A stretch of DNA of 64,000 nucleotides from Rikenellaceae bacterium (GTDB lineage Bacteria; Bacteroidota; Bacteroidia; Bacteroidales; Rikenellaceae), in assembly GCA_020859685.1 (NCBI GenBank), contig JAJBVT010000053.1, positions 11,809-75,808 on the forward strand. Reading direction: 5' to 3'. Of the stretch, positions 15,013 to 64,000 are shown one piece after another (position 1 is the first letter of the stretch; each line of letters opens with the position of its first letter). Both the position numbers and the translations under genes were made by a program. The notes under the pieces are model-generated. The model searched no databases and was not told the origin of the DNA. It was given only the letters and a program-made list of their open reading frames with translations.

Positions 15013-15381
15013 TCAACCGGTGCTGTTTTCCACCAGATTCTTCCATACCTTTTCCGAGCGCATAAAGCCGGGAAAATCATGGCCGGGCCGCCCATCGCAA
15101 TCCTTGAAACAGGGTGCGCACATCACCAGCAGGTCCCACATCGACAGTTCGTAGAACTTCTTTCGAAGGTGCAGCAGCCCTCCAGACTCCGATAGTATAC
15201 CGTAATCGGTAAGCAACGCAAGCGACGTACGTACCATCGGTAACTCACCCTCGGCGAATCCCTTTAACAGGTTGCTCCGTTCTATACCTTTACCCTCTCC
15301 ATCGGCATACATGAAGGATACCACTCCCAAGAGGGTATAAAGGAATTCGAATTGTGGGGTAAACAATACTTCGTCCTTCAT
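15013..15381 (-). CDS. Small conserved protein, first gene behind the invertible promoter (possible winged-helix regulator)
   Basis: 122 aa from the ATG at 15381 (MKDEVLFTPQFEFLYTLLG...). Paralog of 61763-62134 in the same position in locus 2. The longer track ORF (to 15594) would run through the inverted repeat and the promoter. Confidence 0.6.
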   Translation of the reverse strand: MKDEVLFTPQFEFLYTLLGVVSFMYADGEGKGIERSNLLKGFAEGELPMVRTSLALLTDYGILSESGGLLHLRKKFYELSMWDLLVMCAPCFKDCDGRPGHDFPGFMRSEKVWKNLVENSTG

Positions 15382-15418
15382 TTTTCTGCCGTTTCGGAGG
15401 CTTTTTGTTTTACCTGCC

Positions 15419-15435
15419 GTCACTTCGGGAGTGAC
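15419..15435. repeat. Inverted repeat, operon-proximal (switch A)
   Basis: GTCACTTCGGGAGTGAC, the exact reverse complement of 15748-15764. Confidence 0.85.
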
Positions 15436-15466
15436 AATTCGGAAAACATCAATTACTAATCCTGAG

Positions 15467-15474
15467 CAAATGTA
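15467..15474 (-). promoter_or_regulatory. Bacteroides-type -7 box TACATTTG (TAnnTTTG) inside inverton A
   Basis: Plus-strand CAAATGTA. It lies 31 nt from the repeat and reads toward 15381. Homologous boxes sit at the same distance in switches B and C. Confidence 0.55.
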
Positions 15475-15747
15475 AAAAATAATTTCTATTATCGATACAC
15501 CCCTTCGATAAAATTTATATTTTCCGTACGACCTGAATATATAGAACTTATAATTTATTTTAAGAGAATTACTACCCCCGATTAATATATACATCTATAA
15601 ACAATCGATTCTCTTACGCTATTCCTATGCCCTTCCGGGCCCATTATTTTCTTCTGTTCATTACTTTCTGTTTGCCGAATGTTTGGTGAACTCTTCTAAT
15701 AGATACAATCCGTCGCTCTGTTTTACAGGTCGGTACCTATGATTGTT

Positions 15748-15764
15748 GTCACTCCCGAAGTGAC
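15748..15764. repeat. Inverted repeat, recombinase-proximal (switch A)
   Basis: GTCACTCCCGAAGTGAC, separated from the integrase stop by 29 nt. Confidence 0.85.
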
Positions 15765-15793: not shown

Positions 15794-17026
15794 TTATGCG
15801 GCCTCGATAAATCTCGAGAGCCGGTTGCTCAGTTCGTCTATTTCGGAGCGTTCGAACGAGGCGAGGTAAATGGAGGTAACTTTCGGGTCGCGGTGCCCGA
15901 GCCCTTCGCCAATCAACATGATACCGTACCCCATTCTTTTAGCTAAAGTCGCCCATGTGTGGCGGGCAACATGCGTGGAAAGGCTGCTTGTTATTCCCGC
16001 CAGCAGGGATATCTCCTTCAACAACCTGTTCTGCCGGTTCAAAGCGGCTTCGTACCCGGATGGATGAGAAACGCCCTCCGCCATTATCGGGAAGACATAC
16101 GGAGACCGGTTTGTCTCTTTTTTGAAATAGCCGATAATCCTCTTCATGGGTTTGGTAATCCTGACCTGCAGAAAAAAACCGGTCTTACGCCTTTTATATC
16201 GGATGGTATCGCCTTTTATATCGGATTTTTTCAGGTGGGCCAGGTCTATGAACGACATACCGCGGGAGTGGTATGCAAACAGGAAATACATCAGTGCGTG
16301 CCGGAGATTCCTTTTTCCCGCGGGAATCTTTTTCCCGAGCGCGACCAGCGAGTTCATTTCCTTTTGGTCGAGCGCCCGTCTTCGGGTCTCGTACACACCG
16401 GTATAAACATCCTCGAAGGGGTTGGATTCACATTTGCGAATCAGGTTCGCCTTAACGGCGCGGTAATATATCGCCCGGATATTTCGCATATAAAAAGAGA
16501 TTGTATTCATCTGGAGGCCATTGTCCAGAAGGTGCCTCTCGAATGCCCTAATCAGTTTGGGGGTTATATCCGACACTTTTAAGTCCTCCGACCCGGCGAA
16601 CGCGGCCAGCTTCTTCGCGGCGCAGCGGTAGGCCCTTGCCGTCCTGTGGCGCTCCTGTTCCTCCAGCTCGCGGCTGAGAAGTGATGAGAACGATAATAAA
16701 TTGTAGGGCGAGAGCGAACCGTTGAATTCATCGACGATATCTCCGAGACCGTACTCCCCCGCAGCGGAAAGTTTCCGCAGGATAGAGGAGAGGCGTTCGA
16801 GGTCGGCGTTCATCATTTCCTCCAATTGCAGAAGGTGCCGGGTCCGCCCGTTTTCCGCATCGCACGGAATAACCAACCTGCGGCGGACAGGGTCCCACTC
16901 TTCGGGGTAGACCGGGTAGCCCCTCCTTAAATCCCGGTATTTACGCCTGAGGATTAACCGGATAAACAGGGTACCCGGTTTGTCCGGCCCATCCGGACTA
17001 CGGAAATGAAATCTGAAACTTGTCAT
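15794..17026 (-). CDS. Tyrosine site-specific recombinase (phage-integrase family), candidate invertase of switch A
   Basis: Catalytic blocks HVARHTWATLAKRMGY and GLGHRDPKVTSIYLA (H-x-x-R, H, Y). Start chosen at MTSFRFHF by alignment with the paralog 62483-63721 (MTSIRFHY). Confidence 0.85.
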   Translation of the reverse strand: MTSFRFHFRSPDGPDKPGTLFIRLILRRKYRDLRRGYPVYPEEWDPVRRRLVIPCDAENGRTRHLLQLEEMMNADLERLSSILRKLSAAGEYGLGDIVDEFNGSLSPYNLLSFSSLLSRELEEQERHRTARAYRCAAKKLAAFAGSEDLKVSDITPKLIRAFERHLLDNGLQMNTISFYMRNIRAIYYRAVKANLIRKCESNPFEDVYTGVYETRRRALDQKEMNSLVALGKKIPAGKRNLRHALMYFLFAYHSRGMSFIDLAHLKKSDIKGDTIRYKRRKTGFFLQVRITKPMKRIIGYFKKETNRSPYVFPIMAEGVSHPSGYEAALNRQNRLLKEISLLAGITSSLSTHVARHTWATLAKRMGYGIMLIGEGLGHRDPKVTSIYLASFERSEIDELSNRLSRFIEAA

Positions 17027-17299
17027 AATGGTAATATTTATAATAAGTGGATGTATAGTCATGCAAATTTACATTATTACAAATAATACGACCTTTTGGA
17101 CTATTTTTTAATCCGTTTTTATAGTAAAGAGCAGCCAACCGGAATTATTACCATGCGGGTTTTGCCAAAATTAAACCTCTTCCGGATATCGAGGCGGGCG
17201 CCAGCCCTAATACTTTGTGCGCCCTCTTAGCTTCCGTGTATGTTTTATCCGGTCGATAGTCGGGAAATGTTTTATCGGACTTAAAATATTTTGCATATT

Positions 17300-21071: not shown

Positions 21072-21212
21072 ATTTTATACTGTATCTTATAAACACCTCC
21101 CGCCACCTGCGATGAATTTCAGCGCTCCGGTATTTGGCACAACCATATAACCGGAATATTTCTATATTTGTGCACAGACCCGTCGCAAACTGTAACCTTA
21201 ACTTACTTACCA

Positions 21213-23558
21213 ATGAAAATCAGAGGATTATTTTTAGTAACCCTTGCATTGTTGTTTGCAGCGGAACTGAGCGGTCAGCCTCACGGCTTCGGGAACGGCC
21301 GGACGGCCAAATGGATTGCACCGGCCGGCTGCCAAAACGAACCCAACACCTGGATTACATACAAGAAAACCGTGGAAACGGACAGGCTTCCCGAGGGCGA
21401 TATTTATGCCGATATTGCCGTGGACAGCAAATACTGGCTATGGATCAACGGGCGACAGGTGGTTTTCGAAGGCGGCCTGAAACGCAGCCCGAACCCGGCG
21501 GATACATACTTCGACCGAGTCGACCTCACCCCCCACCTCGTACCGGGCAGAAACGATATAGCCGTACTTGTCTGGTACTTCGGCAAGGAGGGGTATTCCC
21601 ACAAAACCAGCGGTCACGCGGGGCTGCTGTTCGACTGCCCCGGTGCCGGAATCGTTAGCGACGGCAGTTGGCGCTGCACCGTCCTTCCCGAGTACGGAAC
21701 CGCGGGAGACCCGCAGCCCAATTATCGCCTACCGGAATCTAGTATCCTCTACGATGCCCGTATCGCCACCGAGGGGTGGTGGCAGCCGCAGTTCGATATC
21801 GCGGGTATGCCGTATGCCGTGGAGGTCGGCAGTGCGGAGGACGGACCATGGGGCAAGCTCGTAGAGCGGCCGATACCGCAATGGAAGGACTACGGGCTTA
21901 AAGATTACCCCGCCCGGCAGACCGTAAGCGGGTCCGTATACGATACCGTGATATGCACACTTCCATACAACGCCCAGATAACGCCCTGGTTCGATATCGA
22001 GGCGGACAAGGGCGACCATATCCTAATAATGACCGATAATTATCTCCGCTACAACGGCGGGGAAACCAACCTTCGCGGCGAGTATATCGCCCGGCAGGGA
22101 CGGCAGGAGTACGAGAACCCGGGCTGGCTGAACGGACACAAAGTCTACTACCTGTTCCCGAAGGGGGTGAAAGTCCACGGTCTGGGATACCGGGAGACGG
22201 GTTATGATACGGAGTTCGAGGGGATGTTCCGGTGCTCGGACCCGTTTTTCAACGCCCTGTGGGAGAAATCGGTGAGGACCCTCTACATTACCATGCGCGA
22301 TAGCTATATGGACTGCCCCGACCGCGAACGGGCGCAGTGGACCGGGGATGCCGTAAACGAGTCCGGCGAGGCGTTCTACGTACTGTCGCAATCGAGTTAT
22401 GACCTGAGCCGGAAATGGCTTTACGAGACCATCGGCGGATGGCAGCGCGAGGACGGCAGTATCTACTCGCCGACCCCTTCCGGAAACTATTTTTCCGAGC
22501 TGCCCGCACAGTCGCTCGCCACGGTCGGTTATTACGGGTTATGGACCTATTACCTTTATACCGGCGACATCCGGCCGGTGGCGGACCTTTTCGACAATGT
22601 AAAGCGATACCTCGACCTCTGGGAGATTGACGACCGGGGCCTCGTAAAATACCGTGAAGCCGGTTGGAACTGGGGCGACTGGGGCGACAACCGGGATATG
22701 CTCCTGATATACAACCTCTGGTACTATCTTGCGGTGAAGGGAATGTATTACGGCGCCGTCGAATTGGGCAGGACGGAGGATGCCGACAATTACCTGTCGT
22801 ATATGACCCGGTTCGTCGAGGCGTTCAAGGCCTGTTTCTGGACCGGCAACGAGTACCGCGACCCGGATTATACCGGAGAGACGGACGACCGCGTACATGC
22901 GCTGGCCGTGGTATCCGGTGTGGCCGGAGAAGATAAATACCCGGCAATCCTCGGGGTTTTCCAACGTCAGGAGCATGCCAGCCCCTACATGGAGAAATAC
23001 GTATTCGAGGCTATGATGCGAATGGGTTACGCATCCGAAGCGATGGACCGTCATAAAAAACGGTTCGGAAAAATGGTGGACTTCCCGCTCACCACACTGT
23101 TCGAGGGGTGGGGAATCGGTCCCGAGGGATTCGGCGGAGGAACGGTAAACCACGCATGGAGCGGAGGCGGACTTACCGTACTCTCGCAGTACGTGTGCGG
23201 TGTGGCGCCCACCGAGCCGGGATGGGAAATGATGCACGTTTTGCCGGTACCTGGATACCTTACGGAGGCTGAAATCTCCGTTCCTACGGTCAAAGGTACG
23301 GTCGAAAGTAAATTTACGACGGACGGCGACGGTTTTAACCTGTCCGTCACCATACCGGAGGTTCGGACCTGCGTGATTGGCGTTCCGGCCGACGGCGCCG
23401 GGAGCGTCTTCCTGAACGGTGAACTTATCTGGACCGGGGGGAAATTCGTCGACAACGGTTCGGGCGCAAACCCCCGGGAAGACATAACCGGCCATATCGC
23501 GGTGGAGGTCGGTCCGGGAAGTTATGAAATGACCCGGACAGGGGGAGTACTGTTTTAG
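21213..23558 (+). CDS. GH78-like (alpha-L-rhamnosidase-related) six-hairpin glycoside hydrolase
   Basis: Start moved to MKIRGLFLVTLALLFAAELSGQ (signal peptide). Motif MDCPDRERAQWTGDA resembles the rhamnosidase catalytic-domain box. Confidence 0.6.
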   Translation: MKIRGLFLVTLALLFAAELSGQPHGFGNGRTAKWIAPAGCQNEPNTWITYKKTVETDRLPEGDIYADIAVDSKYWLWINGRQVVFEGGLKRSPNPADTYFDRVDLTPHLVPGRNDIAVLVWYFGKEGYSHKTSGHAGLLFDCPGAGIVSDGSWRCTVLPEYGTAGDPQPNYRLPESSILYDARIATEGWWQPQFDIAGMPYAVEVGSAEDGPWGKLVERPIPQWKDYGLKDYPARQTVSGSVYDTVICTLPYNAQITPWFDIEADKGDHILIMTDNYLRYNGGETNLRGEYIARQGRQEYENPGWLNGHKVYYLFPKGVKVHGLGYRETGYDTEFEGMFRCSDPFFNALWEKSVRTLYITMRDSYMDCPDRERAQWTGDAVNESGEAFYVLSQSSYDLSRKWLYETIGGWQREDGSIYSPTPSGNYFSELPAQSLATVGYYGLWTYYLYTGDIRPVADLFDNVKRYLDLWEIDDRGLVKYREAGWNWGDWGDNRDMLLIYNLWYYLAVKGMYYGAVELGRTEDADNYLSYMTRFVEAFKACFWTGNEYRDPDYTGETDDRVHALAVVSGVAGEDKYPAILGVFQRQEHASPYMEKYVFEAMMRMGYASEAMDRHKKRFGKMVDFPLTTLFEGWGIGPEGFGGGTVNHAWSGGGLTVLSQYVCGVAPTEPGWEMMHVLPVPGYLTEAEISVPTVKGTVESKFTTDGDGFNLSVTIPEVRTCVIGVPADGAGSVFLNGELIWTGGKFVDNGSGANPREDITGHIAVEVGPGSYEMTRTGGVLF

Positions 23559-23869: not shown

Positions 23870-24169
23870 GTCACTTAAGGAGTGACGGATAGGCAAACAG
23901 AAACCTGTCGGTACAAATGTAAAAATAAAATTTATTTATCTAATCATAACCGCAAAAATCTTAATTTCCGATGCTGTAATCCCATTCGGGGCCAATGCAG
24001 TATTCGTATCTTTAATCACCGTTGCCCCGGACAAATCCAAGAACCGGATTTCCCGTGTAGATATTTGCGGAATGTTTGTTACCGGTTACGTCGGAAGAAA
24101 TTTAAAGTAACTGTTAACCAATAAATTATAGCCGTAGTCAGATTCCAGTATTGTCACTCCTTAAGTGAC
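23870..24169. promoter_or_regulatory. Orphan invertible promoter segment (inverton B)
   Basis: GTCACTTAAGGAGTGAC (23870-23886) and its exact reverse complement GTCACTCCTTAAGTGAC (24153-24169) bracket 266 bp. There is no recombinase gene or fimbrial CDS next to it. Confidence 0.65.
23914..23921 (-). promoter_or_regulatory. -7 box TACATTTG inside inverton B
   Basis: Plus-strand CAAATGTA 27 nt from the left repeat. The surrounding sequence gtacaaatgtaaaaataaaattt resembles gagcaaatgtaaaaaataatttc in switch A. Confidence 0.5.
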
Positions 24170-24322: not shown

Positions 24323-25348
24323 TTACAACCCTCTGAGGTGCTTCTCCCACGCCCAAGCGGAGCGGAGGGTCTCTTCGAGACTGCGTTCGGCCTTCCAGCC
24401 CAGCTCGGTGTTGGCCAGCGTGGTATCCGCCCACACCGCCTCGACGTCGCCCGCACGGCGGCCCACGATTTTATACGGAACCGCGACCCCGTTCACCTTC
24501 TCGAACGTGCGCACCAACTCCAGTACCGAGACCGGCCGACCCGTACCTATATTAAATATCTCGTACCGCTCTTTCATTCCGCCGCCGACCATCCTGCCGA
24601 CGGCCACAACGTGCGCCTTGGCAAGGTCCACCACGTCGATATAATCCCGGAGGGCGGTGCCGTCCTCCGTATTGTAATCGTCGCCGAATATGCTGAGCCG
24701 GTCGCGGACACCGGCGGCCGTCTGGGTAATAAACGGTACGAGGTTGTTCGGTACCCCCTTTGGCAGTTCCCCTATAAGCGCAGAAGGGTGGGCTCCTATG
24801 GGATTGAAATAGCGCAGGGCTATCCCGCTCAGGCCCGCGTAGGCCGCAACACTGTCCCGCAGGATATCTTCGCAAATCTGTTTGGTATTGCCGTAGGGCG
24901 AGGTAGCCGGTTTACGCGGGGTGCTCTCGGTAGCGGGAAGTATGTCCGGCTGGCCGTACACCGTGGCTGACGACGAGAACACGATATTGGGAACCCCGTA
25001 CTCCTTCATCAGCTCCAGCACGGTAACGAACGACCCGAGATTGTTCCCGTAGTACAACAGCGGCTGCTCCACCGATTCGCCCACCGCCTTGCTGGCTGCG
25101 AAATGGATGACCCCGCAGAAGTCGTGCACCTTGAAAACTTCTTCGAGGGCAGCCCTGTCGTTACAGTCGGCCTTCACGAACGGTATCTCCCGGCCGGTGA
25201 TTTCCCGCACCCCCTCGATTGCCGACAACTCGGAGTTCGACAGGTCGTCCACCACCACCACTCCGAAACCGGCATTTATAAGTTCGACCGCCGTATGGGT
25301 CCCGATATATCCGGCCGCACCGGTTACAAGCACTTTTCCTTTTTCCAT
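24323..25348 (-). CDS. galE: UDP-glucose 4-epimerase
   Basis: Start at MEKGKVLVTGAAGYIGTH (Rossmann GxxGxxG). SDR-extended Y-x-x-x-K (PYGNTK). About 340 aa. Confidence 0.85.
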   Translation of the reverse strand: MEKGKVLVTGAAGYIGTHTAVELINAGFGVVVVDDLSNSELSAIEGVREITGREIPFVKADCNDRAALEEVFKVHDFCGVIHFAASKAVGESVEQPLLYYGNNLGSFVTVLELMKEYGVPNIVFSSSATVYGQPDILPATESTPRKPATSPYGNTKQICEDILRDSVAAYAGLSGIALRYFNPIGAHPSALIGELPKGVPNNLVPFITQTAAGVRDRLSIFGDDYNTEDGTALRDYIDVVDLAKAHVVAVGRMVGGGMKERYEIFNIGTGRPVSVLELVRTFEKVNGVAVPYKIVGRRAGDVEAVWADTTLANTELGWKAERSLEETLRSAWAWEKHLRGL

Positions 25349-25443
25349 ATTCCTGTTTCCTTTCCCCGGCCCGGCCGGGATATTTCCGAATTGCCGCAAA
25401 TTTACTTGAAGATACGAAACTTATCCCGTATCCGGAAATCTTT

Positions 25444-53147: not shown

Positions 53148-56093
53148 TCACTCGTCCACCACACAGCGGATGGGATAGGCTAAAGGCTTATTACCGAATG
53201 AAGTTTGACATTCGTCCTTCCTTGTTAATATCGACCAGGCCATAGCACCGCCGGTGTAAGATGTAGCCGTCCAGTATTGTCCGTAGTATGCGGTACCCGA
53301 TATTTGGCCGGTGGTATTCCGGAATCCGGCGATAGGGAAGAAAAGCGAGGCGTTATTGTAGGGATTGTAGAACAACCGGCCTATATAGCCCACATTATAT
53401 TTATCACTGAGTACGGCCGCATCGGCTTCTCCCGTTATCGTGCCGGTTATCATATGCCGATCGAAGAAACCGTCTGCAAGATAACCCCAGAAACTGTTTT
53501 GGATATTATTGTTCACCCCTACCACCAGATTGAGCCAGAGGGACTGGCGTTGCTCAAAATCATCGACAGGTGTATTATTAGCAATCTCAACCGATGTCGA
53601 CCCGTCCGTGGCACGGCGGTATCCCGGCGGGCAGGTCTCATGGGTCGATTTCAGATCGTATGAATCTTCCCAGTTCCCGGTTGCTCGGGTGTTCTGCCAA
53701 CCGGTGATTGCCGTCCCAACACCCGGGTTGGTCGGATGCCATGCGTAACGGGGAAAGCTCGCGTTGGCCCACTGGAAATAAGCGCCCACCTGGGACGGAT
53801 ACTCCGTAAACGTGCCGCCATTCAGGGCGAGCTGGGAGTGATCCGAAGTGGCGGTCCCCCCGGGTTTGGTACCGTCTAAATATTCCTGCGAAGTGATATT
53901 GTAAGGCGAAATTTTCACCGTATGGGTCCGCGCCGCAATGGCGCCGTTGGGCACGGGATCCTCGCTGCGCATAAGGTAGTCCGGGTCGTGGCCCTGACGA
54001 ACGTATATCATTCCCGCGTTTTTCCCGTCGTTGTAGTTTACCAGTATCTTACCGTACCTTGCCGGGGCTTCGTCGGTAGGGGTATAGGGGCCCGTCAGCC
54101 CTATTCGGAAATAGAGCGGTTCGGTAGAGTTATACACTCCGCTAATCGCGTTACTGCCCGAGGTCAGTCTGTAAAGGGCGTCGTTCGCCGGATCGTTCAT
54201 ATCGGCCGGACTCTCGCCCGCCGCCCAGGTGACCCCCGGGTCTTTCGTCGGCTCCGTATCGAGCATAATCCAATCTTCCCCGTCTACGACCCTCGCCGTC
54301 CATCCCGCCGCTACGGTATTGGTAAAGTTCGGAATGTGAATCAACCGCTCCCCGCTCTGCTCGGCCCTCCAGAACGCGCCGACGTACATATACGGAGTGG
54401 CATAGTCGGGCAGGTCACCCACATTCACATAGTTCTGACCCACATACATTTTTATCCGCGACAGGGTGCCGTCCTGATTTTTGCGTACCGCATATAGCTC
54501 ACCCCCGGTGCGGTAAGTACCGGTTTGGTCCCTTTCCAATATATAGGGTTCGGCCATCAGGTATAATTTACCGGGAGAGGTGAGCGTAATCCTGTCCTCT
54601 ATCCGTGAAGTTCCGTCCGGGGAGACGGCCAGATAATTATCCGTGCCCCGGCTCGTTATCTGACACTCTACGTAATCGCCGTCGAGCTCCAGATATCCGG
54701 AGCTGTCGAGTCTGTCCACTACCGATACCGTAACCTCCTGTTCAAGGTTCCCCAGAGTGACCGTAATGGTGCCGCCGGTTGCGCCGGTTGAAATCATGAC
54801 GCTTACCGTAGTTACCCCGCCGGATGTTTCCGCAAGGTTGATCGTAGTCGGAATCGGGTAGATCCCGGTTGTACTGGACAATACGGTCGCCGTTGTAATT
54901 CCCATAGCCGCCGTTGCGTCGGTAGTAATTATAAACGCCTCAGAAAGTGTTGTCCCGGGGGAGCCGTATAGAACCACCTCCGAATTGGACAGGCCGAGAT
55001 AATACTGTCCGTTCGAAACTATCTCATGGGCATAGGCATCGGTAACCTCTATTTCGTATTCGATGTTGGAAAGGGGAGCGTCGATAGCCTCCTGCATCGA
55101 GGCGTAACCACGTCCGGCGGCTGTTATGGTGAATGTGTAATTCTTATTCCGCTCTATCTCCCGGTAGACCTCATCTATGACGAACCCGAGTTTGTAATAG
55201 TAGCTCTTATCTATATAAACGGCTTTTATTATAACGGCAGTCCCGAGGTCGTCGGCAGCCTCGTAGATATATAGCGGGGTGTCGGCCGTAGTGTTGCCCG
55301 TGGCGGGGGCCATACCGCTTACTCCGTCGCCGGTGGTGGCGGTAAGGTAGCTGGTTGTATTGGATGTGTTGTCCTGTACGGCCGTGCCCGCGGGCCGGTA
55401 GAAGCTCCCGTTCCGGGGAGCGTTTACGAGTCCTGCGCCTTCGAGGGTGAACCCGGTCAGGCCGCTGTCTACGTTCACCGTCGCTTTTGCCACCGAGCGG
55501 GTAAGCAGTAATTTGTCGGACGAAGTGCCCAACTCGGTGGTATCGTCTATCTTCGTCACCTCTTTGATGCCCGCGAGGGGGAGTTTGGTCTGTGGCGCGG
55601 TGAAAGGCGCCACGGCCTGCAAAGAGGAGTTGAGCAGTTGCGTGCGCAGGACATCCTTAACGTCGTCGAGTGTCTTGCCCTCCATCGCCTGAGTGATATC
55701 ATAGGCGGAGAATTGGGTGTCCGTGCCGGAATTGCGGAATTTATCGCCGGGAACGTTGGCGACGAGCAGTATGGTACTCGGCTGGTCGGTCATACTGAGG
55801 GTTACGACCGTCTCCGTGCCCGACACCTCGGCCTGGGCCGCCTCCGTGAAGCTCGCCGTGTTGCCGTGGCCTTCGAAAACCAGCACCACCGGAAGGTCGA
55901 TACCGTCCTCATCCGCAGCGGCCCGTGTGCCGGGAGCGGCGTAATCCGCGGAGTTGGTGTAGAGCGTCAGCCGCACCTTGCCGTCGGGCACGTCCGGAAT
56001 TCTGTTATCCGTATCGTCCCGGATACACGATATCCCTGCAAGCACCAGCGCGCCCAGAGTGAATAATCTCGATAATATCTGTCGTGAGTCCAT
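53148..56093 (-). CDS. Fimbrial tip/accessory adhesin-like lipoprotein with Fib_succ/DUF1566-like lectin C-terminus
   Basis: 981 aa with lipobox GISC and a fimbrillin-like N-terminus (LPVVLVFEG.., ILLVANV.., LPLAG). YVGAFWRAEQSGER repeat region. C-terminal ETCPPGYRRATDG...ASLFFPIAGFR...YWTATS...YPIRCVVDE. Confidence 0.6.
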   Translation of the reverse strand: MDSRQILSRLFTLGALVLAGISCIRDDTDNRIPDVPDGKVRLTLYTNSADYAAPGTRAAADEDGIDLPVVLVFEGHGNTASFTEAAQAEVSGTETVVTLSMTDQPSTILLVANVPGDKFRNSGTDTQFSAYDITQAMEGKTLDDVKDVLRTQLLNSSLQAVAPFTAPQTKLPLAGIKEVTKIDDTTELGTSSDKLLLTRSVAKATVNVDSGLTGFTLEGAGLVNAPRNGSFYRPAGTAVQDNTSNTTSYLTATTGDGVSGMAPATGNTTADTPLYIYEAADDLGTAVIIKAVYIDKSYYYKLGFVIDEVYREIERNKNYTFTITAAGRGYASMQEAIDAPLSNIEYEIEVTDAYAHEIVSNGQYYLGLSNSEVVLYGSPGTTLSEAFIITTDATAAMGITTATVLSSTTGIYPIPTTINLAETSGGVTTVSVMISTGATGGTITVTLGNLEQEVTVSVVDRLDSSGYLELDGDYVECQITSRGTDNYLAVSPDGTSRIEDRITLTSPGKLYLMAEPYILERDQTGTYRTGGELYAVRKNQDGTLSRIKMYVGQNYVNVGDLPDYATPYMYVGAFWRAEQSGERLIHIPNFTNTVAAGWTARVVDGEDWIMLDTEPTKDPGVTWAAGESPADMNDPANDALYRLTSGSNAISGVYNSTEPLYFRIGLTGPYTPTDEAPARYGKILVNYNDGKNAGMIYVRQGHDPDYLMRSEDPVPNGAIAARTHTVKISPYNITSQEYLDGTKPGGTATSDHSQLALNGGTFTEYPSQVGAYFQWANASFPRYAWHPTNPGVGTAITGWQNTRATGNWEDSYDLKSTHETCPPGYRRATDGSTSVEIANNTPVDDFEQRQSLWLNLVVGVNNNIQNSFWGYLADGFFDRHMITGTITGEADAAVLSDKYNVGYIGRLFYNPYNNASLFFPIAGFRNTTGQISGTAYYGQYWTATSYTGGAMAWSILTRKDECQTSFGNKPLAYPIRCVVDE

Positions 56094-56121
56094 ATACTTT
56101 TTAGTATTTGTATCCTTACTA

Positions 56122-58704
56122 CTAGTCTACCACACAGCGGATGGAGATGCCGTTGGAGCGGCGCGCGGCGTTATTCTGGTAAGCGTCCGTCTGGTTCACC
56201 AACAAACCCCACCCGTACTCGGTGCTATTAGTCGAGGAGGTCCAGTAATAACCGATGTCCCCACTGCTGTAAATTTGGCTCGAACTGTAATGGCGGTTGC
56301 CGCAAGCCGGAAAGAAGAGCGACGCATTCGTGTCGGGATTGAAGAACAAGCGGCCAACGTACGCCGCACGGTAGTCGTTCGTTTCGATACATACGGCCGA
56401 ATTGTCGAATGCCGTGTAGGCCGTAGAGGTCTCGATGGTCCGCCTGTCGAAAAACCCGTCGGCATAATAACCCCACCGGCTGTTATCGGTATCGCTTGTC
56501 GTACCGGTCTGCGGATTCAGCCACAGGGACTGCCGCTGTTCGCTGGCGGCAATAGCGGGACTACCTACGACCGCGTCCGTAACCCCGTCCGTCAGACGGC
56601 GATAACCCGGCGGGCACGTCTCGCGGGAAGATTCCCATGTATTCCAATAAGTGGTAAAATCCGTGACGCTGCTCCAGCCGCTTATCTGCATCGAGCCTTC
56701 GGGGTTGTTCGGGTGATAGGCGTAATTGCCGCCCTGATCCATATGCTGGAAATAAGCTCCGGCCTGGGTAGGATACTCGGTGAACACTCCCTGCCGGATT
56801 CCGGTAAAGAGTGTATGGTTCGCGATGGTGGTACCACCCGTTTTGGTCCCTTCTATAAATTCCCGCGAGGTAAGGTTGTAAGGCGAATATTTCGCCGCCA
56901 GCGGCCTATTCCCGCTCAATGCAGTGGCATTGTCGTCCGGCCGCATCAGGTAATCGGCCGCCTCGCCCTGACGAATAAATATTTCATGGGTGCCGTTCAC
57001 CACCACTTTGGCATAGCGTGGCGCGGAAGGGTCGGGGTTTTCCCCGGTAAGCCCTATCCGGAAATAGATGTTGCCCGTTCCGGAGACTGATGTCGCACTT
57101 CCCTCTACCGGCCAACTCTCCGCATCGCCGGGTTCCGTACCGTCCGCCCACAGGCCGGGGTCGAGGCTCTTGCCGGGGGCCAGTACCACCCAGCCGGGGG
57201 CACCGTCTACCGCGGCGGTCCAGTCGCCGGTGTTCGCCATGGCAATCACCCGCTCGCCCTTCTGGTCGCTGCGCCAGAAAGCGCCCACATAGTTGTAGGC
57301 GGCAAAGTCGGATGAGGGGATATTTACGTTCACCGTCACTTCGCGGGTAAACTTACCGCCCCCCGCGTTGAGGTATATTTTATGAGTACGGGTCGTCCCG
57401 TCGGCACTTACACGGGCGGCGGCCCGGTCGGTCATTATATCGAACCACCCCTCGCCGGTCGAGCCGTCGAAATGGAAATTTTCCGGATTACTGCCTGTCA
57501 GGCCGTAAAACACCTCGTCGACCGGCAGGTCGCTGCCGTCGAGTTCTTCGATATATACGTCCTGCTGGTCCGTCCAGAAATAGATACGAGCCATATTACG
57601 CTCGTTTATCGTCGCCTCGACTGCCGAAACGTACAGGCTCCTGTTCGTCCTGTCGTCGACTAACTTGTCGTCCCAGTCTTGGGCCGCAATCGCGATATCT
57701 ATTTCTGCATCGTTTACAGCCACGGTCGCAGACACGTCGTAGTAGACATTACGCGGCAGGGTATAGTCGTCCGGCCTGTCGATGCCGATAAGTGCGGGAT
57801 AATCCTCCGTGGCGAAACAGGCCGTGAGTACCACGGCGCAATCCTTATCGCTTTCCGGGGTGAACCACACTTCCGGAAGGAGTATGCGCGGATATGTTAT
57901 CTCGACGGCATAATCGCCGGAGGTGAGGGTCGTTATGTTTCCCGGTTCGGATGAATATCCGGCGTTGCCGGCGACGGCATCGTATTGCAGGTTGTTCGTA
58001 ACCGACGCGCTGTTGTCCGTTTCAGGGAATATGTAGAGCCGGTCGGGGACGTTATCGAAACGGATATGTTTGAAATCGGCAAACTGCGCGTCGGTCAGCC
58101 TGAGCGTCAAATCTACCCTTACCGCCATGCGGGTTATGGGAACCTTCTACTCCGAACCGGCGGTCGCATTCCCGTCATAGGTTACCTTATCGTCTCCGCT
58201 GATAATTACACGCTCGCAAACCTCCGACATCGGTACAAGGTTGGTATTGCCCGCCACCCAGTCCAGCGAACCGATACCGAAATAGAGCGATTTAAGGTCG
58301 TCTATGGTCGCCACGTCGGGGATAAGTCCGGCGAGCTGTCCCGACAGACTATTGTCTAACTGCTCATTCGCAATAAATACGACCGTAAATGTTCCGGTAA
58401 GCACATTGACCGTAGCCGTGCGCTCCGCGGCGGAACCGGAGCCGGCGACGGCGGTGAAATTAACCGGCTCGTTAAACGCCAGCGAACCGTCACCCGCGCG
58501 GAAGCCCATTATACGGAATTTGTCTATTTCGTAGTCCACCGCACTACCCTCCTCCGTAGCACGGGTCATAGGTGCTCCGAGGGTTATTACCACCGGCAGC
58601 TCCTGCTCGCGGGTAGTCGTGACTTCACCCCGGTCGCTGACACAGGAGAGGAGAGCAAAGGCCGGGATTGCCAGACAAAATATAAACCTTATTATATATC
58701 TCAT
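56122..58704 (-). pseudogene. Fimbrial tip/accessory adhesin-like lipoprotein (paralog of 53148-56093) interrupted by one in-frame TAG
   Basis: Track ORFs 58147-58704 (lipobox LLSC, fimbrillin-like N-terminus) and 56122-58128 are in the same frame, separated only by TAG (58147-58149) plus 6 codons: ..TAGSE, TAG, KVPITRMAVRVDLTL... The paralog aligns across the junction (..DKLLLTRSVAKATVNV..). Confidence 0.65.
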
Positions 58705-58716
58705 ATCTGCTTATTT

Positions 58717-59637
58717 TCATCCTATGGGCGTAGGGTCGGTAACGTAGTTCCAGCCGGTAACGGTAATGGTAAGCCCCAATTCGGTGTCGAACGTTAGTTT
58801 GAGGTCGAACTCGAACTCCGTATCGAAATCGACCGCATGTCCGATTCCGGCATAGGCCGTAATTATCATCTCCACCAGATTGCCATTGTAAAGGTTTTGT
58901 CCGGTGGTGATATTTTGCAGTTCGAATACGGGCGAACGGTCTTCCGCGAGGCGGAGGGTCTTGACGGAGGAGGTCAGTTCCCCGTCGGTAAAACCGGCAG
59001 TCCGCAGGTAAACGATATCGTCCATGTTCTCAATAATCGTATTGTCGAATGCGTAGTGGGTATTGTTATCCCTTACCGAGAAAGCGTACACGGCAGCCTG
59101 GTCCACCCCTTCGACGGTAAAATTGACCCGGTAGGTGTTCGGCTTTATTATGATTTCAAAAGTATGGTCTGTTTGAGGCAGGACCTGGGCATCCGTAAGT
59201 ATCCCGTGATGCAGGTCTGGTATTTCTTCCGTAACAATACCATCCGAACGGTATTGCAGGGCGACCACAAGGTCGTCGGCATTCGGAGAATCGGTTACTC
59301 CGGTATATGTTTCCCCCTGATTTGTCCACACCACGAAGTGATATGAACCGGGGTCGAGTTCGAGGTAGGCTTCATAAGTCTCCCCTGAAGTATAAGCACC
59401 TCCGTTCCATGTCCCCACGAAACGTTCATACTGGTCGAATACATATATATACACATTATCTATGTTATAATAACCGCCTTCGGCGCGGGTTACCTCCTCC
59501 AGCGTTCTGACTACAATGTGTACCACCGGTTGGGCGTCGGGACAGTCGTCCGTATTGTCCATGACACACGATGTCAGAGCACAAGTCATGCACAGAGCTA
59601 CGAGAGATAACTTTGCCGCAGTATATAGATATTTCAT
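58717..59637 (-). CDS. FimB/Mfa2-family fimbrial anchor/terminator subunit
   Basis: 306 aa with lipobox LTSC followed by ..DDCPD, a VYIYVFD motif, and paralogy with 10087-11025. Confidence 0.7.
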   Translation of the reverse strand: MKYLYTAAKLSLVALCMTCALTSCVMDNTDDCPDAQPVVHIVVRTLEEVTRAEGGYYNIDNVYIYVFDQYERFVGTWNGGAYTSGETYEAYLELDPGSYHFVVWTNQGETYTGVTDSPNADDLVVALQYRSDGIVTEEIPDLHHGILTDAQVLPQTDHTFEIIIKPNTYRVNFTVEGVDQAAVYAFSVRDNNTHYAFDNTIIENMDDIVYLRTAGFTDGELTSSVKTLRLAEDRSPVFELQNITTGQNLYNGNLVEMIITAYAGIGHAVDFDTEFEFDLKLTFDTELGLTITVTGWNYVTDPTPIG

Positions 59638-59878: not shown

Positions 59879-61405
59879 TTAATTCGGATCTTCGCCGAGT
59901 TCCAGATCGTCGGGTACATATTCCCACGGGTTCACCGAAATAACCACCCTGAGTGTAGCCGGACCCTCTTCTAGCGGGGTTTCGTCTTCCTCGTCGGGGG
60001 GATTCGGATTTTTACCGTTGTCCTCGTTCGGGTCTATGGGAGTTTCGGGGTCGTCGTCACGCCCGGGATAGGTCGTACCGAAATCGCCCGGAGTAATATC
60101 GACACCGGTTATCAGCACATGGAAGAATTCGTTACGGTAAACGTTGTACTTCTCGATAGCGTCCGATTTATTACGGCCGAGGAACACGCGGAAGTATACA
60201 TAGCCTTCCGGGTATTCGTATTGGTATATATCCGTGTTGTCGATTCCTTCAACCTGCTGCAGGTAATCGGTAATGGCGGTCCTAACGGTTGTACTGTTTT
60301 CGCAAATAATATCGTCGAAACCTTCGCCGCGGATAAGTACGAAATCACTGCCGGCAGAAATGGGACTTCCGTTATATACGAGTTCGTCACCCGAACCGTT
60401 GTCTTCGATAACAGCACTTTTAGCCAGTTCCATCTGGGTTTTTATATAGGCATAGGTAGCGGTTCCGTAACGGGCGACATCGTTCTCGTTCTTGGCAACG
60501 TTCTCACCGATATAGAACCCGGGAACATCCTGTCTTACGGTGGTTGCGGCATCGTATGAAGCGACCGGCTGATAATCTATATTATAAGGAGCCGAGCCGG
60601 AAACATAGTAGCCGTAATGGTGAAGCGCGTCGTCCCAGCTCGATGCCGTACTCAGGTATGAGGTCTTGATGGTAACGCCGTCCGAATTGGTAGCGTACTT
60701 TTGCGCGAAGTGGCTCTTATAAGCGTCCTGTACCACGAAGAACTCTTCTACCTCGAATATAAGGTCCCCGGCGTTCGCGGCACTCCAGTCCGCCGTCATC
60801 GTACTGCTCAGACCGCTACCCATAGTGGTAATAACCCTCGACACGGCACGGTCGAGACCCACGCTGACCACATTATCGACCGGCTCCATATCCAGTCTCT
60901 CTTCCGCCATCCCTATCATCGCGATGGATTCCAGATTCCCGAAGTCGTAATTGAGGATATTGGCGTGAACGTCGATAACATCGAGCAGAGCGGCTTCGTT
61001 GGCCGGTTGTGTGGTGGCGAAAGTACCGAATACGCTGTGCTCGAGGTTAGCAGCCACGTAAATTTTCTTGTAGCCCGAGTAGGTCTTGATTTTTTTGTTC
61101 AGGGTATACGTACTGGTACCGGTCGGTGTAAAATCACCGGGGAAATCCACGCGGGTAAAATCTTCATAACCCAGAAGGCTTCCGTCGGGGTTGAATACAT
61201 AGACATAAATGTAATCGCCGATGGCGTTTTCCGCCGGGGTGCCGTCCTGAGTGGCGCGGGTCAGCGCCTGTGGAATGGTGAGGGTGAAAGAGAAACTGGT
61301 TTCCACACCATCTTCCGTGGTGTTACCGTCGTTGCCCCCGTCTTTGGAGCAGGCAGCAAGGGTTAGTGCCGCGAGCGCGGCTACTGCAATTGATCTTAAT
61401 CTCAT
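59879..61405 (-). CDS. Mfa1-family fimbrial major subunit
   Basis: 508 aa with lipobox LAAC. TSFSFTLTIPQALTRAT, YIYVYVF. Paralog of 11114-12481. Confidence 0.7.
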   Translation of the reverse strand: MRLRSIAVAALAALTLAACSKDGGNDGNTTEDGVETSFSFTLTIPQALTRATQDGTPAENAIGDYIYVYVFNPDGSLLGYEDFTRVDFPGDFTPTGTSTYTLNKKIKTYSGYKKIYVAANLEHSVFGTFATTQPANEAALLDVIDVHANILNYDFGNLESIAMIGMAEERLDMEPVDNVVSVGLDRAVSRVITTMGSGLSSTMTADWSAANAGDLIFEVEEFFVVQDAYKSHFAQKYATNSDGVTIKTSYLSTASSWDDALHHYGYYVSGSAPYNIDYQPVASYDAATTVRQDVPGFYIGENVAKNENDVARYGTATYAYIKTQMELAKSAVIEDNGSGDELVYNGSPISAGSDFVLIRGEGFDDIICENSTTVRTAITDYLQQVEGIDNTDIYQYEYPEGYVYFRVFLGRNKSDAIEKYNVYRNEFFHVLITGVDITPGDFGTTYPGRDDDPETPIDPNEDNGKNPNPPDEEDETPLEEGPATLRVVISVNPWEYVPDDLELGEDPN

Positions 61406-61762
61406 AATTTTAAATTAGTTGAATGGAACATTTGTTTTGATCGATCTTCTTTATATCGGTTGAGTTGATATCAATTGTTCGGAGTGGATAGTAAAGACCG
61501 AGAGGTTATTGGTACCCCAAACGGATAACTCTATTTTATAAAAGAGTTGCCTGATGTTTTTCCCGTGGCAAAACCGAGCAGTTATACGTATTGCCGGTAA
61601 TCGGGCCACCGGCAGATACGGCCCGGTTAGCTGGCATACGGTGCAGCCTCCCGGTCGGTAGAACGGGCGGATAATTTTCGGTGGGGCGGGGCAGTAAATG
61701 GCGGATTAAGGTTGTTTTATACATATTCTTTTATTTAGTATATTATATTTGAAAAAGGGTAG

Positions 61763-62134
61763 TTATACTATATAAGATAAACTGAGTGGTTCCGACCGGG
61801 TGAAGGATTTCAATAATTCATACCGGCCGTTATCCGGCGGATCGGCATTTTCCAGCCACGGCTCGGCAATAATCAACAGGTCCCACACGCTCATTGAGTA
61901 GAACCGGCAGCGGTTGAGATACATAGCGCCTTCCCGGATGGAAACTATTCCGTTATCCTCCAGCAGGCACAGTAGTGAACATGTAGTTGTTTTACAGGAG
62001 CGGATGATATTAACGAAGGCCTCCCACTCCACTCCTTTTCCTTCGATACCGGCATACATATAGCTAAACGTCCCAAGGAGCCGATATACTTCCTCGAAGC
62101 GTTTGCTGAATAATATTTTATTATCATCTTTCAT
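61763..62134 (-). CDS. Small conserved protein, first gene behind inverton C (paralog of 15013-15381)
   Basis: 123 aa, MKDDNKILFSKRFEEVYRLLGTFSYMYAGIEGKGVEW..., collinear with MKDEVLFTPQFEFLYTLLGVVSFMYADGEGKGIER... Shares ..SMWDLL/SVWDLL... Confidence 0.6.
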   Translation of the reverse strand: MKDDNKILFSKRFEEVYRLLGTFSYMYAGIEGKGVEWEAFVNIIRSCKTTTCSLLCLLEDNGIVSIREGAMYLNRCRFYSMSVWDLLIIAEPWLENADPPDNGRYELLKSFTRSEPLSLSYIV

Positions 62135-62158
62135 TCACCACTGCGGCCGTCGTTTTAC

Positions 62159-62479
62159 AACCGTCACTCTTCAAGTGACGTGGCACAGGGTGATACGAGA
62201 TGATAATAGTCTGTATTTTAGTTGAAAGGGTATATGTCGAAGAGTGATACACGAAACAGCGGACAAACTCCTAATCTGCGGGTTTCAGGACGAAGTTTTC
62301 CGTTGCCGAAGGGAAGTCGGGGTAGTTTTGATATATAACGGGGCTGTAACTATCTTTGGTAAATGGGGTTAGAAAAATCAAATTTTTGTAAATAAGTATT
62401 GACAAAAGAAAAATTATTTTACCTTTGCTGTGCGATCGTGCTCCGATGTTTCCGAACCGTCACTTGAAGAGTGACGGTT
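62159..62479. promoter_or_regulatory. Invertible promoter segment (inverton C) of fimbrial locus 2, present in the OFF orientation
   Basis: 22-bp perfect inverted repeats AACCGTCACTCTTCAAGTGACG (62159-62180) and CGTCACTTGAAGAGTGACGGTT (62458-62479). The cores GTCACT-N5-AGTGAC are at 62163-62179 and 62459-62475. The internal -7 box points away from the operon. Confidence 0.7.
62420..62427 (+). promoter_or_regulatory. -7 box TACCTTTG (TAnnTTTG) inside inverton C
   Basis: Lies 31 nt before the right repeat. The context aaattattttacctttgct...gatgtttccgaacc is homologous to the minus strand of switch A (aaattattttttacatttgct...gatgttttccgaatt). Confidence 0.55.
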
Positions 62480-62482
62480 TTT

Positions 62483-63721
62483 TTATGCCGCCCGTACTGC
62501 CCGAGACATCCTGGTACTCAATTCGTCCAGCGCCGACCGCTCGAACGACGCGAGATAAATCGAGGTAACTTTCGTATCCCTGTGGCCCAAACCCTCGCTT
62601 ATCAACGATATATTGTACCCCATCCGTTTGGCGAGTGTGGCCCAAGTATGGCGGGCGACATGTGTGGAGATATTCTTCTCAATACCCGCCAATCCGGCCA
62701 GTACCTTTAAATATCGGTTCTGGCGGTTAAGTGCCGATTCGTAACGGAGCCGGTAATCGGATGCAGCCGGATCGATGATAGGGAATAAAAAAGGAGAACC
62801 TTTTGTTGCCGCTTTAAACCGGTCGATAATCCTTTTCATCGGCCTTGTAATCTTCACCTCGATATAAAATCCCGTCTTCTTTCTTTTATAGATTATGGAG
62901 CCATCCTTTATATCTGATTTTTTAAGATACGCCAGGTCGATGAAAGACATTCCCCGCGAATGATAGGCAAAGAGAAAATAGAGCAGCGCATTGCGAAGCT
63001 CGGTGTCGCCGGGCGGGAGTTTCTTTTCCAGTCCGGCCAGAGCGTTTATATCCTGCCTGTCGAGGGAACGGCGGCGCGTATCGTATACTCCGGTATAGAC
63101 GTTCCCGAAAGGGTTGGTTTCGGCAGGCACTATAATTTCCGAGGCCACCGCACGGTTGTATAATGCCCTAAGGTTGCGCATATAAAACGAAACGGTATTC
63201 ATATGGAGACCCGTATCCAGCAGCCACCTCTCGTATTCGCGCAACCTGAAAGCCGTAATTTCGCATAAAGGCATATCCTGCCCGTGGTTGAACTTAACGA
63301 TGCTCCTGGCCGCCGAGCGGTAAGCGCGGGCGGTTCTCACTCTGCCCTCTGCGTTAAGCTCACGGGCCACTGTACCTGCAAACGCAATCACGGTATCACG
63401 GTTTCCTGTTTTATGGAATCCGTCGACAACGTCGCCGACCGTGAAATTACCCGTCTTAGATAGCGCCTTTACAATATCCTCCAACCGCGAGAGGTCTGCC
63501 CGCATCGACTCTTCAGTCTGTCTAAAGCACATATACCGCTCTCTTTCCGTCGCTGTCGGCATCCGCAGCCAATGGGAACCGAAGTCCCAATCCTGAGGGT
63601 TTACGGGGTAGTTGCGCCTGATATCACGGTACTTACGCCCGTGTATTATCCGGATAAATAACGTACCGGAACCCGCCTCCCCTGTAACCGGGGGGCGGTA
63701 GTGAAACCTGATACTCGTCAT
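62483..63721 (-). CDS. Tyrosine site-specific recombinase (phage-integrase family), candidate invertase of switch C
   Basis: 412 aa. STHVARHTWATLAKRMGY and GLGHRDTKVTSIYLA. Paralog of 15794-17026. Its stop is separated from the inverted-repeat core by 7 nt. Confidence 0.85.
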   Translation of the reverse strand: MTSIRFHYRPPVTGEAGSGTLFIRIIHGRKYRDIRRNYPVNPQDWDFGSHWLRMPTATERERYMCFRQTEESMRADLSRLEDIVKALSKTGNFTVGDVVDGFHKTGNRDTVIAFAGTVARELNAEGRVRTARAYRSAARSIVKFNHGQDMPLCEITAFRLREYERWLLDTGLHMNTVSFYMRNLRALYNRAVASEIIVPAETNPFGNVYTGVYDTRRRSLDRQDINALAGLEKKLPPGDTELRNALLYFLFAYHSRGMSFIDLAYLKKSDIKDGSIIYKRKKTGFYIEVKITRPMKRIIDRFKAATKGSPFLFPIIDPAASDYRLRYESALNRQNRYLKVLAGLAGIEKNISTHVARHTWATLAKRMGYNISLISEGLGHRDTKVTSIYLASFERSALDELSTRMSRAVRAA

Positions 63722-63913
63722 AATAATATAATTAAAAGTAGTGGAGCGGTAAAATTACACTATTTTACCGTTAACCGCCTTTTTATACTATTATTTCGTC
63801 CGAATTAATCAGGAGAAAAGATTGGAAATACCAATTCCGTCGATAAGGAAATATGGTCACTCTTTTTTTGATTTTATGGCGGGGAGGCTGAATATTCTAT
63901 TTACATATTACAA

Positions 63914-63955
63914 TAAAAAAAGGTCTTGAAGATTTATAATCTTCAAGACCTTTTT
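63914..63955. terminator. Bidirectional intrinsic terminator
   Basis: 13-bp perfect stem AGGTCTTGAAGAT/ATCTTCAAGACCT (63921-63951), flanked by an A-run and a T-run. It probably ends a minus-strand gene whose last codons (..PIPELH, TGA at 63955-63957) enter from the window end. Confidence 0.65.
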
Positions 63956-64000
63956 CAGTGAAGTTCCGGGATAGGGTTCAGCCCTACTGCGTAAGAGCGG

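Follow-up and report, generated by a model that had tools for sequence, protein, structure and literature searches.

An invertible promoter beside a type V pilus operon in an uncultured Rikenellaceae lineage, assembled OFF and facing a terminator-like hairpin at its recombinase-side repeat

We analysed a stretch of DNA of 64 kb (the window) from a Rikenellaceae bacterium. Close to its right-hand end, a tyrosine site-specific recombinase gene, an intergenic segment bounded by inverted repeats (inverton C) and a run of pilus genes follow one another, with all genes on the - strand. Two further segments with the same half-sites, the paralogous inverton A and the orphan inverton B, lie elsewhere in the window (Table 1). 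The operon next to inverton C encodes both a fimbrillin-fold stalk subunit and an Mfa2/FimB anchor, the two components by which a type V (FimA/Mfa1) pilus is recognised, and all of its reading frames are intact. The two large proteins encoded at its far end are probably pilus accessory or tip proteins.

Table 1 Coordinates of the invertons, genes and other features in the window.
Feature	Position	Strand	Remarks
Inverton A	15419..15764		Paralogous switch, assembled ON; promoter TACATTTG on the - strand, 40 nt from the operon-side repeat
Recombinase A	15794-17029	-	No T-run after its recombinase-side repeat
Inverton B	23870..24169		Orphan with the same half-sites, without adjacent recombinase or target gene
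Two large downstream proteins	53148..58128	-	668 aa and 981 aa; same strand, tight spacing, weak Fib_succ_major match only
FimA-like small subunit	58147..58704	-	185 aa
Mfa2/FimB-type pilus anchor	58717..59637	-	306 aa; Mfa2, 4e-29
FimA/fimbrillin-like type V pilus subunit	59879..61405	-	508 aa; lipoprotein-type N-terminus; Fimbrillin_C, P_gingi_FimA
First gene of the switched operon	61763..62134	-	123 aa; predicted Rrf2-like winged-helix fold; conserved first gene in related loci
IRL, operon-side inverted repeat of C	62159..62180		22 bp; core GTCACTCTTCAAGTGAC at 62163-62179; perfect reverse complement of 62458-62479
Invertible segment of C	62181..62457		277 bp, assembled OFF; aligns with homologous segments only when all are promoter-forward
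Conserved internal block	62250..62268		CACGAAACAGCGGACAAAC; family pattern AAACA-N4-GCAAAC, from an alignment of nine invertons
Sigma-ABfr-type Bacteroidetes promoter	62399..62427	+	TTG (-33 region, 62399-62401), 18-nt spacer, -7 box TACCTTTG (62420-62427); points rightward to IRR
Terminator-like element	62454..62486	+	12-bp stem, 3-nt loop, T7; built from IRR, in the path of the OFF-state transcript
IRR, recombinase-side inverted repeat of C	62458..62479		22 bp; core GTCACTTGAAGAGTGAC at 62459-62475
Tyrosine site-specific recombinase	62483..63721	-	412 aa; Phage_int_SAM_5 2e-16, Phage_integrase 4e-12, weak Arm-DNA-bind_5
Perfect hairpin	63917..63955		18-bp arms, flanked by A5 and T5

The arms of inverton C, at 62159-62180 (+ strand) and 62458-62479 (- strand), both read AACCGTCACTCTTCAAGTGACG and are identical over all 22 bp; no such repeat is expected by chance (100 dinucleotide-preserving shuffles). 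They enclose an intergenic segment within the range of about 100-700 bp that characterises such invertons, measuring 277 nt from one 22-bp arm to the other, or 279 nt from core to core (17-bp cores). A preliminary description of this locus had given both the perfect repeats and the core-to-core distance, and both were recovered from the sequence. Each arm is itself a near-palindrome with a GTCACT-N5-AGTGAC core. This pattern occurs at six sites in the 64-kb window, where 0.06 would be expected, and the six sites form three pairs, belonging to A (15419-15435/15748-15764), B (23870-23886/24153-24169) and C (62163-62179/62459-62475). The conserved internal block of the segment lies about 70-110 nt from the promoter-distal repeat in C and eight other invertons, and part of it mirrors the leader motif TGTTT(C/G)CC found beside the promoter-proximal repeat; it may be an accessory or arm-type binding site. 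A search of inverton C against Rfam returned no known RNA family.

The stop codon of the recombinase gene (62483-62485) lies 3 nt from the 22-bp arm and 7 nt from the core of IRR, the latter being the distance previously reported for the right repeat. The encoded protein has the complete R-K-H-R-H-Y catalytic set of a tyrosine recombinase (R256, K282, H354, R357, H380 and Y389), and these residues are invariant in 16 homologues. A Rikenellaceae metagenome-assembled genome has an annotated recombinase that is 100% identical to it; among reference genomes, the nearest are Alistipes and Rikenellaceae metagenome-assembled genomes, at 65-73% identity, and the NCBIfam models for tyrosine-type DNA invertases matched at E ~3e-5, far under their cutoff. 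The -7 box of the recombinase gene is only near-consensus (TAATTTTA) and is common to the related locus L012. Two other candidate features were set aside. The sequence GGTCACTCTT at 63857-63866, considered as an autoregulatory half-site upstream of the recombinase, is a chance match present in one of 13 loci, and a + strand reading frame at 62471-62710, which starts inside the repeat and runs antisense to the recombinase gene, gained no support and was taken as spurious. The perfect hairpin at 63917-63955 probably serves as a terminator in both directions, separating the promoter region of the recombinase gene from its upstream neighbour.

The 123-aa product of the first operon gene had no match in Pfam or NCBIfam, and thus none to PF02082 (Rrf2) above the gathering score. 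Its family is tiny, comprising 15 clusters at E<1e-10 (50% identity clusters) among 1.84 billion representatives. An AlphaFold (AF2) model with a pLDDT of 86.8 had CymR, NsrR and IscR as its best folds in the PDB (TM 0.57-0.68), with match probabilities of ~1 yet E-values of only 6e-3 to 5e-2. The first reading frame of a distant related locus, L023, matched Pfam Rrf2 at E=4e-5, below the cutoff. No conserved cysteines or Fe-S cysteine ligands were found in the 123-aa family. The protein is described here as a predicted, clade-specific regulator with an Rrf2 fold; that it might mediate cross-talk between pilus loci is speculation only.

The consensus of Bacteroidetes housekeeping promoters is TAnnTTTG at -7 with TTTG near -33 (PMC7366714), and an outward-facing promoter of this type lies inside the segment of inverton C near one repeat, a position that is homologous in 16 loci. 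Its -7 box lies on the + strand at 31 nt from the core of IRR and faces the 3' end of the recombinase gene and away from the operon; the promoter is thus convergent with the recombinase gene and 55 nt from its stop codon. The operon-facing strand of the segment, as assembled, has no TAnnTTTG, and a second promoter toward the operon was accordingly rejected. The promoter-proximal ~90 nt of C match the reverse complement of inverton A at 60 of 90 positions, and the remainder of the segment at 134 of 257. The recombinases of the two loci are 57% identical, and their half-sites are the same. These results uphold the earlier reading of C as the same switch family as A captured OFF, with the TACCTTTG box in surroundings homologous to A on the opposite strand and the promoter pointing away from the operon. 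By the orientation of the promoter relative to the operon, C is assembled OFF and A is assembled ON. The accompanying statement that the two states coexist in the same molecule is correct for the assembly and overstated beyond it: because the window matches a metagenome-assembled Rikenellaceae contig, a single-molecule claim is too strong, and the orientations of A and C are population consensus states, each the majority at its own locus, and not the state of a single cell.

A recombinase profile search of species-representative genomes retrieved 80 loci, from which the survey set was defined as the 16 recombinase-adjacent segments (including A and C) with TCACT-N5-AGTGA cores and a promoter 39-57 nt from one repeat. 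Relative to conserved flanks, homologous loci occur in both orientations: 11-12 of the 16 are OFF (C, L005, L006, L007, L009, L012, L017, L022, L023, L025, L061 and probably L042) and four are ON (A, L008, L036 and L041). Nine close segments align along their length when all are placed promoter-forward (scores of 33-101), as opposed to scores of -9.5 to 15 with one reversed; the whole segment, and not merely a motif, is therefore flipped relative to the conserved flanks. The survey is comparative evidence for inversion in the family and not for flipping of C itself. With its repeats, adjacent recombinase, internal promoter and homologues in both orientations, inverton C has every feature of the Bacteroidales tyrosine-recombinase inverton class that can be tested in sequence.

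The flipped form of C would be marked by the junction of TTTTACAACCGTCACTCTTCAAGTGACG to GTTCGGAAACATC. The 22-bp repeat had no exact match among JGI metagenome contigs, and exact look-ups of the 123-aa protein and the recombinase (Logan/NCBI) returned seven contigs, from Logan runs SRR152196xx. No ON form of C was found among these same-species contigs, all four of the decidable ones being OFF. Contig breaks inside the segment fell mostly at a T/C SNP rather than at the repeats. A single contig, L087 (Logan SRR15219649), stops precisely with the final base of IRR, where a branch point of the de Bruijn graph would be expected if both orientations coexisted in the sample, which is a weak hint of the flipped form. 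No same-locus ON/OFF pair was found in the orthologous loci (P0002, P0009 and P0007), where all copies agree with their reference, and an exact look-up of recombinase A found no entry on record.

At locus A, the small first protein is 37% identical to that of locus C, and the operon continues with genes for a DUF3575 protein, an OmpA-like protein, a FimA-like protein, Mfa2 and large proteins; it, too, is a type V pilus operon. A mechanical call of the small gene (15013-15594, - strand) reaches 213 nt upstream, into inverton A; the product from the conserved start codon (ATG at 15381) has 122 aa (15013-15381). Annotation pipelines could therefore yield orientation-dependent N-terminal extensions at this gene. 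Another paralogous locus (L089/L090; Logan SRR15219646 and SRR15219682), from the same samples as the window organism, is OFF and combines recombinase P0009 (62% identical to that of C) with an inverton whose repeats have a TCAGG centre and with genes for a DUF3575 protein and a small protein of 126 aa; L089 again carries a T-run, in the order stop codon, A6, repeat.

Inverton B lies between the 3' ends of a convergent rhamnosidase-like gene (21168-23558, + strand) and galE (24323-25399, - strand). The position is syntenic with a locus of Alistipes sp. C.6_1 (L036/L091/L092), in which galE, a recombinase gene, an inverton with the same TAAGG centre, a degenerate small gene and the rhamnosidase gene follow one another. 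In the window, the recombinase gene is gone and the small gene is a stub of ~19 codons, and the 17-bp cores are still perfect. Inverton B is therefore a relic in decay, for which flipping in trans could still occur.

The 5-nt centres of the repeats are TCGGG (A), TAAGG (B) and TGAAG (C) in the window, and GCGTA, TTCAG, GTGCA, TTTGA and TAAGG in Alistipes sp. C.6_1. Within one genome (the window, and those of L006, L009, L012, L023 and L036), the half-sites GTCACT/AGTGAC are identical and every centre is different. Tyrosine recombinases require the two partner sites to have the same overlap region, as is established from heterospecific lox and FRT variants. We infer that, because the centres differ, only the two arms of the same switch would recombine with each other, even with cross-reacting enzymes, so that several switches 8-47 kb apart could coexist without scrambling of the chromosome.

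The recombinase-side repeat of C forms part of a terminator-like element. On the + strand, the element reads GAACCGTCACTT-GAA-GAGTGACGGTTT followed by TTTTATG, that is, a G+C-containing hairpin followed by a U-tract on the strand transcribed from the OFF promoter, as in the sequence of an intrinsic terminator. Its folding energy is -16.6 kcal/mol in a 37-nt context and -20.3 kcal/mol in 66 nt, and in a 2.6-kb scan of both strands (61400-64000) it was the sole terminator-like site. Rho-independent terminators operate in B. thetaiotaomicron (PMC7366714). The operon-side repeat forms the same hairpin but is followed by GGTTGTAAAACG, without a U-tract, and ON-state transcripts therefore meet no U-tract stop. 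Across the survey, a T-run of at least 6 nt lies directly outward of the recombinase-side repeat in 10 of 16 loci, and directly outward of the operon-side repeat in 0 of 16. The 10 loci are not independent and represent about five lineages (the clade of C, L005-8 and L012; L009; L022; L023; and L041), with different flanks; the recombinases of the diverged L009, L022, L023 and L041 are 41-55% identical. The T-run is outside the invertible segment and is present in ON loci (L008, L041) as well as OFF loci. Considered as a universal trait of the family, it was rejected, being absent from A, L036, L017/L025, L042 and L061 and from nine more distant loci, in which at least 59 nt separate the stop codon from the repeat. 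From its distribution, the T-run is a feature of a clade and not defining for the family. At C, it overlaps the complement of the TAA stop codon of the recombinase gene.

In the mechanism that we propose, a tyrosine recombinase, either the adjacent one or its paralogue, would invert the 277-bp segment, each repeat serving as a recombinase site with two GTCACT half-sites around an asymmetric 5-nt centre. In the ON orientation, the sigma-ABfr promoter would read through the operon-side repeat into the gene for the Rrf2-fold protein and the type V pilus operon. In the OFF orientation, the promoter would face the 3' end of the recombinase gene and the operon would be silent; the transcript, on starting at the predicted promoter, would meet the repeat hairpin and U7 and stop after about 55 nt, and termination at IRR would insulate the convergent recombinase gene from antisense transcription. 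We consider it likely that C is a phase-variation switch of this kind, with an adjacent recombinase, its pilus operon OFF, and its OFF transcript most likely terminated at the IRR hairpin. With a little less assurance, we would expect most OFF-state transcripts to end near 62484-62487 as an RNA of ~55 nt.

The OFF promoter might instead read through IRR, and the resulting long antisense RNA might lower recombinase expression and lock the switch OFF, as had been suggested in the preliminary description. The promoter is indeed convergent with the recombinase gene at 55 nt from its stop, OFF is the commoner state in assemblies of the family (about 12 of 16), and in B. fragilis the OFF bias of IVp-I vanishes with a plasmid-borne recombinase, for which the authors suggest suppressed recombinase expression (PMC4747536). 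An OFF bias would, however, also follow simply if the two inversion rates were unequal or if selection acted against expression of the pilus. Regulation by cis-antisense RNA calls for an unobstructed path from promoter to recombinase gene, and at C the 12-bp hairpin and U7 stand exactly in that path, so that neither a long antisense transcript across the gene nor a self-stabilising OFF state by antisense damping finds support here. The retention of the T-run on the recombinase side across lineages (10 of 16 versus 0 of 16) suggests selection against read-through, and this one-sided conservation points to insulation of the recombinase rather than antisense control. We regard the antisense model as improbable for C, and damping as a reasonable hypothesis for loci without a T-run, such as A when OFF; read-through is plausible at A and the five other such loci.

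The hairpin and T-run could also be unrelated to the inverton promoter, the A-run behind the stop codon belonging to the 3' end of the recombinase mRNA or persisting as a neutral remnant, with Rho or RNA decay handling the OFF output. In favour of this, the complement of the TAA stop codon lies within the T-run, which occurs only at loci whose repeat directly adjoins the stop codon and which the closest clade shares by common descent. Against this, the hairpin on the recombinase-sense strand has no U-tract, and hence is no canonical terminator for the recombinase, and the T-run recurs with different flanks in L009, L022, L023 and L041; this explanation seems to us less probable still than the antisense model. 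The least probable reading by far is that C is a fossil that no longer inverts and leaves its pilus operon permanently silent. Every recovered contig that reaches the segment is OFF, and the neighbouring relic B shows that such modules decay, but the perfect 22-bp repeats, the six intact catalytic residues and the intact reading frames of the whole operon argue otherwise, as does, weakly, the end of L087 at the repeat edge.

Insulated termination, as proposed for C, admits a wider and more speculative form, which we put forward tentatively and think probably wrong in some part: in the Rikenellaceae/Alistipes clade, the recombination site would double as a one-sided intrinsic terminator, yielding a phase-specific OFF RNA of ~55 nt and shielding the recombinase, and the ON state would co-express an Rrf2-fold regulator that could cross-regulate the other pilus loci in the manner of UpxZ. 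If this is true, a U-tract beside one of two identical hairpins lets the switch terminate its own OFF transcript. No description of a one-sided U-tract on a recombination-site hairpin was found in the open-access literature, and the arrangement, which makes the hairpin a putative terminator for the OFF-state transcript, appears modestly new. With this locus, the arrangement of recombinase gene, inverton and type V pilus operon that is well known from Bacteroidales is extended to an uncultured lineage of Rikenellaceae, in which 64 kb contain at least two switch loci that look active, together with one relic.

In E. coli, the tyrosine recombinases FimB and FimE reportedly flip fimS, a fimbrial promoter segment of ~300 bp, and the orientational control of fimE is said to involve a Rho-dependent terminator met by the fimE sense transcript. 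Inverton C resembles fimS in that the recombinase gene reads toward the switch and that orientation changes what lies 3' of the recombinase mRNA. It differs in that its candidate terminator is intrinsic and is met by the transcript of the switch promoter itself, and the recombinases are distantly related. In the cwpV switch of C. difficile (PMC2784873), as in C, orientation decides whether a transcript encounters a terminator hairpin; there, the switch does not contain the promoter, which is fixed, and in one orientation the terminator forms within the leader, whereas in C the promoter moves and the U-tract is fixed outside.

Closer parallels exist among the Bacteroidales. Where an invertase gene lies next to a Bacteroides inverton, its orientation is consistently one in which the promoter within the inverton cannot transcribe it (PMC11892184), and in B. 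fragilis, transcription is reduced by repeats that intervene between promoter and genes (PMC4747536, citing earlier work). The B. fragilis recombinase Tsr19/BF2766 acts on an adjacent promoter, IVp-I, which is OFF-biased, and a distant one, IVp-II, which precedes an Mfa-like cluster (PMC4747536); the window differs in having two loci with a recombinase each, plus orphan B. The one-sided U-tract bears on the OFF bias of recombinase-adjacent promoters in B. fragilis, and argues against antisense feedback, at least at C. In the capsule loci of the same species, the gene that comes first after each invertible promoter encodes a locus-specific small regulator paralogue (UpxY/UpxZ) that allows cross-talk between loci (PMC11685472), which recalls the first gene of C, although the latter has a predicted Rrf2-like winged-helix fold, neither NusG-like nor UpxZ, and cross-regulation by it would be purely conjectural. 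The nearest counterpart is the BVU2684 (Tsr)/Mfa1 locus of P. vulgatus (PMC12940148), in which, as in C, the recombinase gene lies immediately upstream of the invertible promoter of a type V (Mfa1/Mfa2) pilus operon. That switch is mostly OFF in culture, and C is assembled OFF; several paralogous Tsr/inverton pairs occur per P. vulgatus genome, and their enzymes cross-react (PMC12940148). The P. vulgatus repeats (TACTT-NNN-ANGTA) and those of C (GTCACT-N5-AGTGAC) both consist of short half-sites around a variable centre. Compared by description with the BVU2684 locus, C is distinguished by its repeat sequence, the hairpin with U-tract on the recombinase side, of which PMC12940148 gives no description, its uncultured Rikenellaceae host and the predicted Rrf2 fold of its first gene product.
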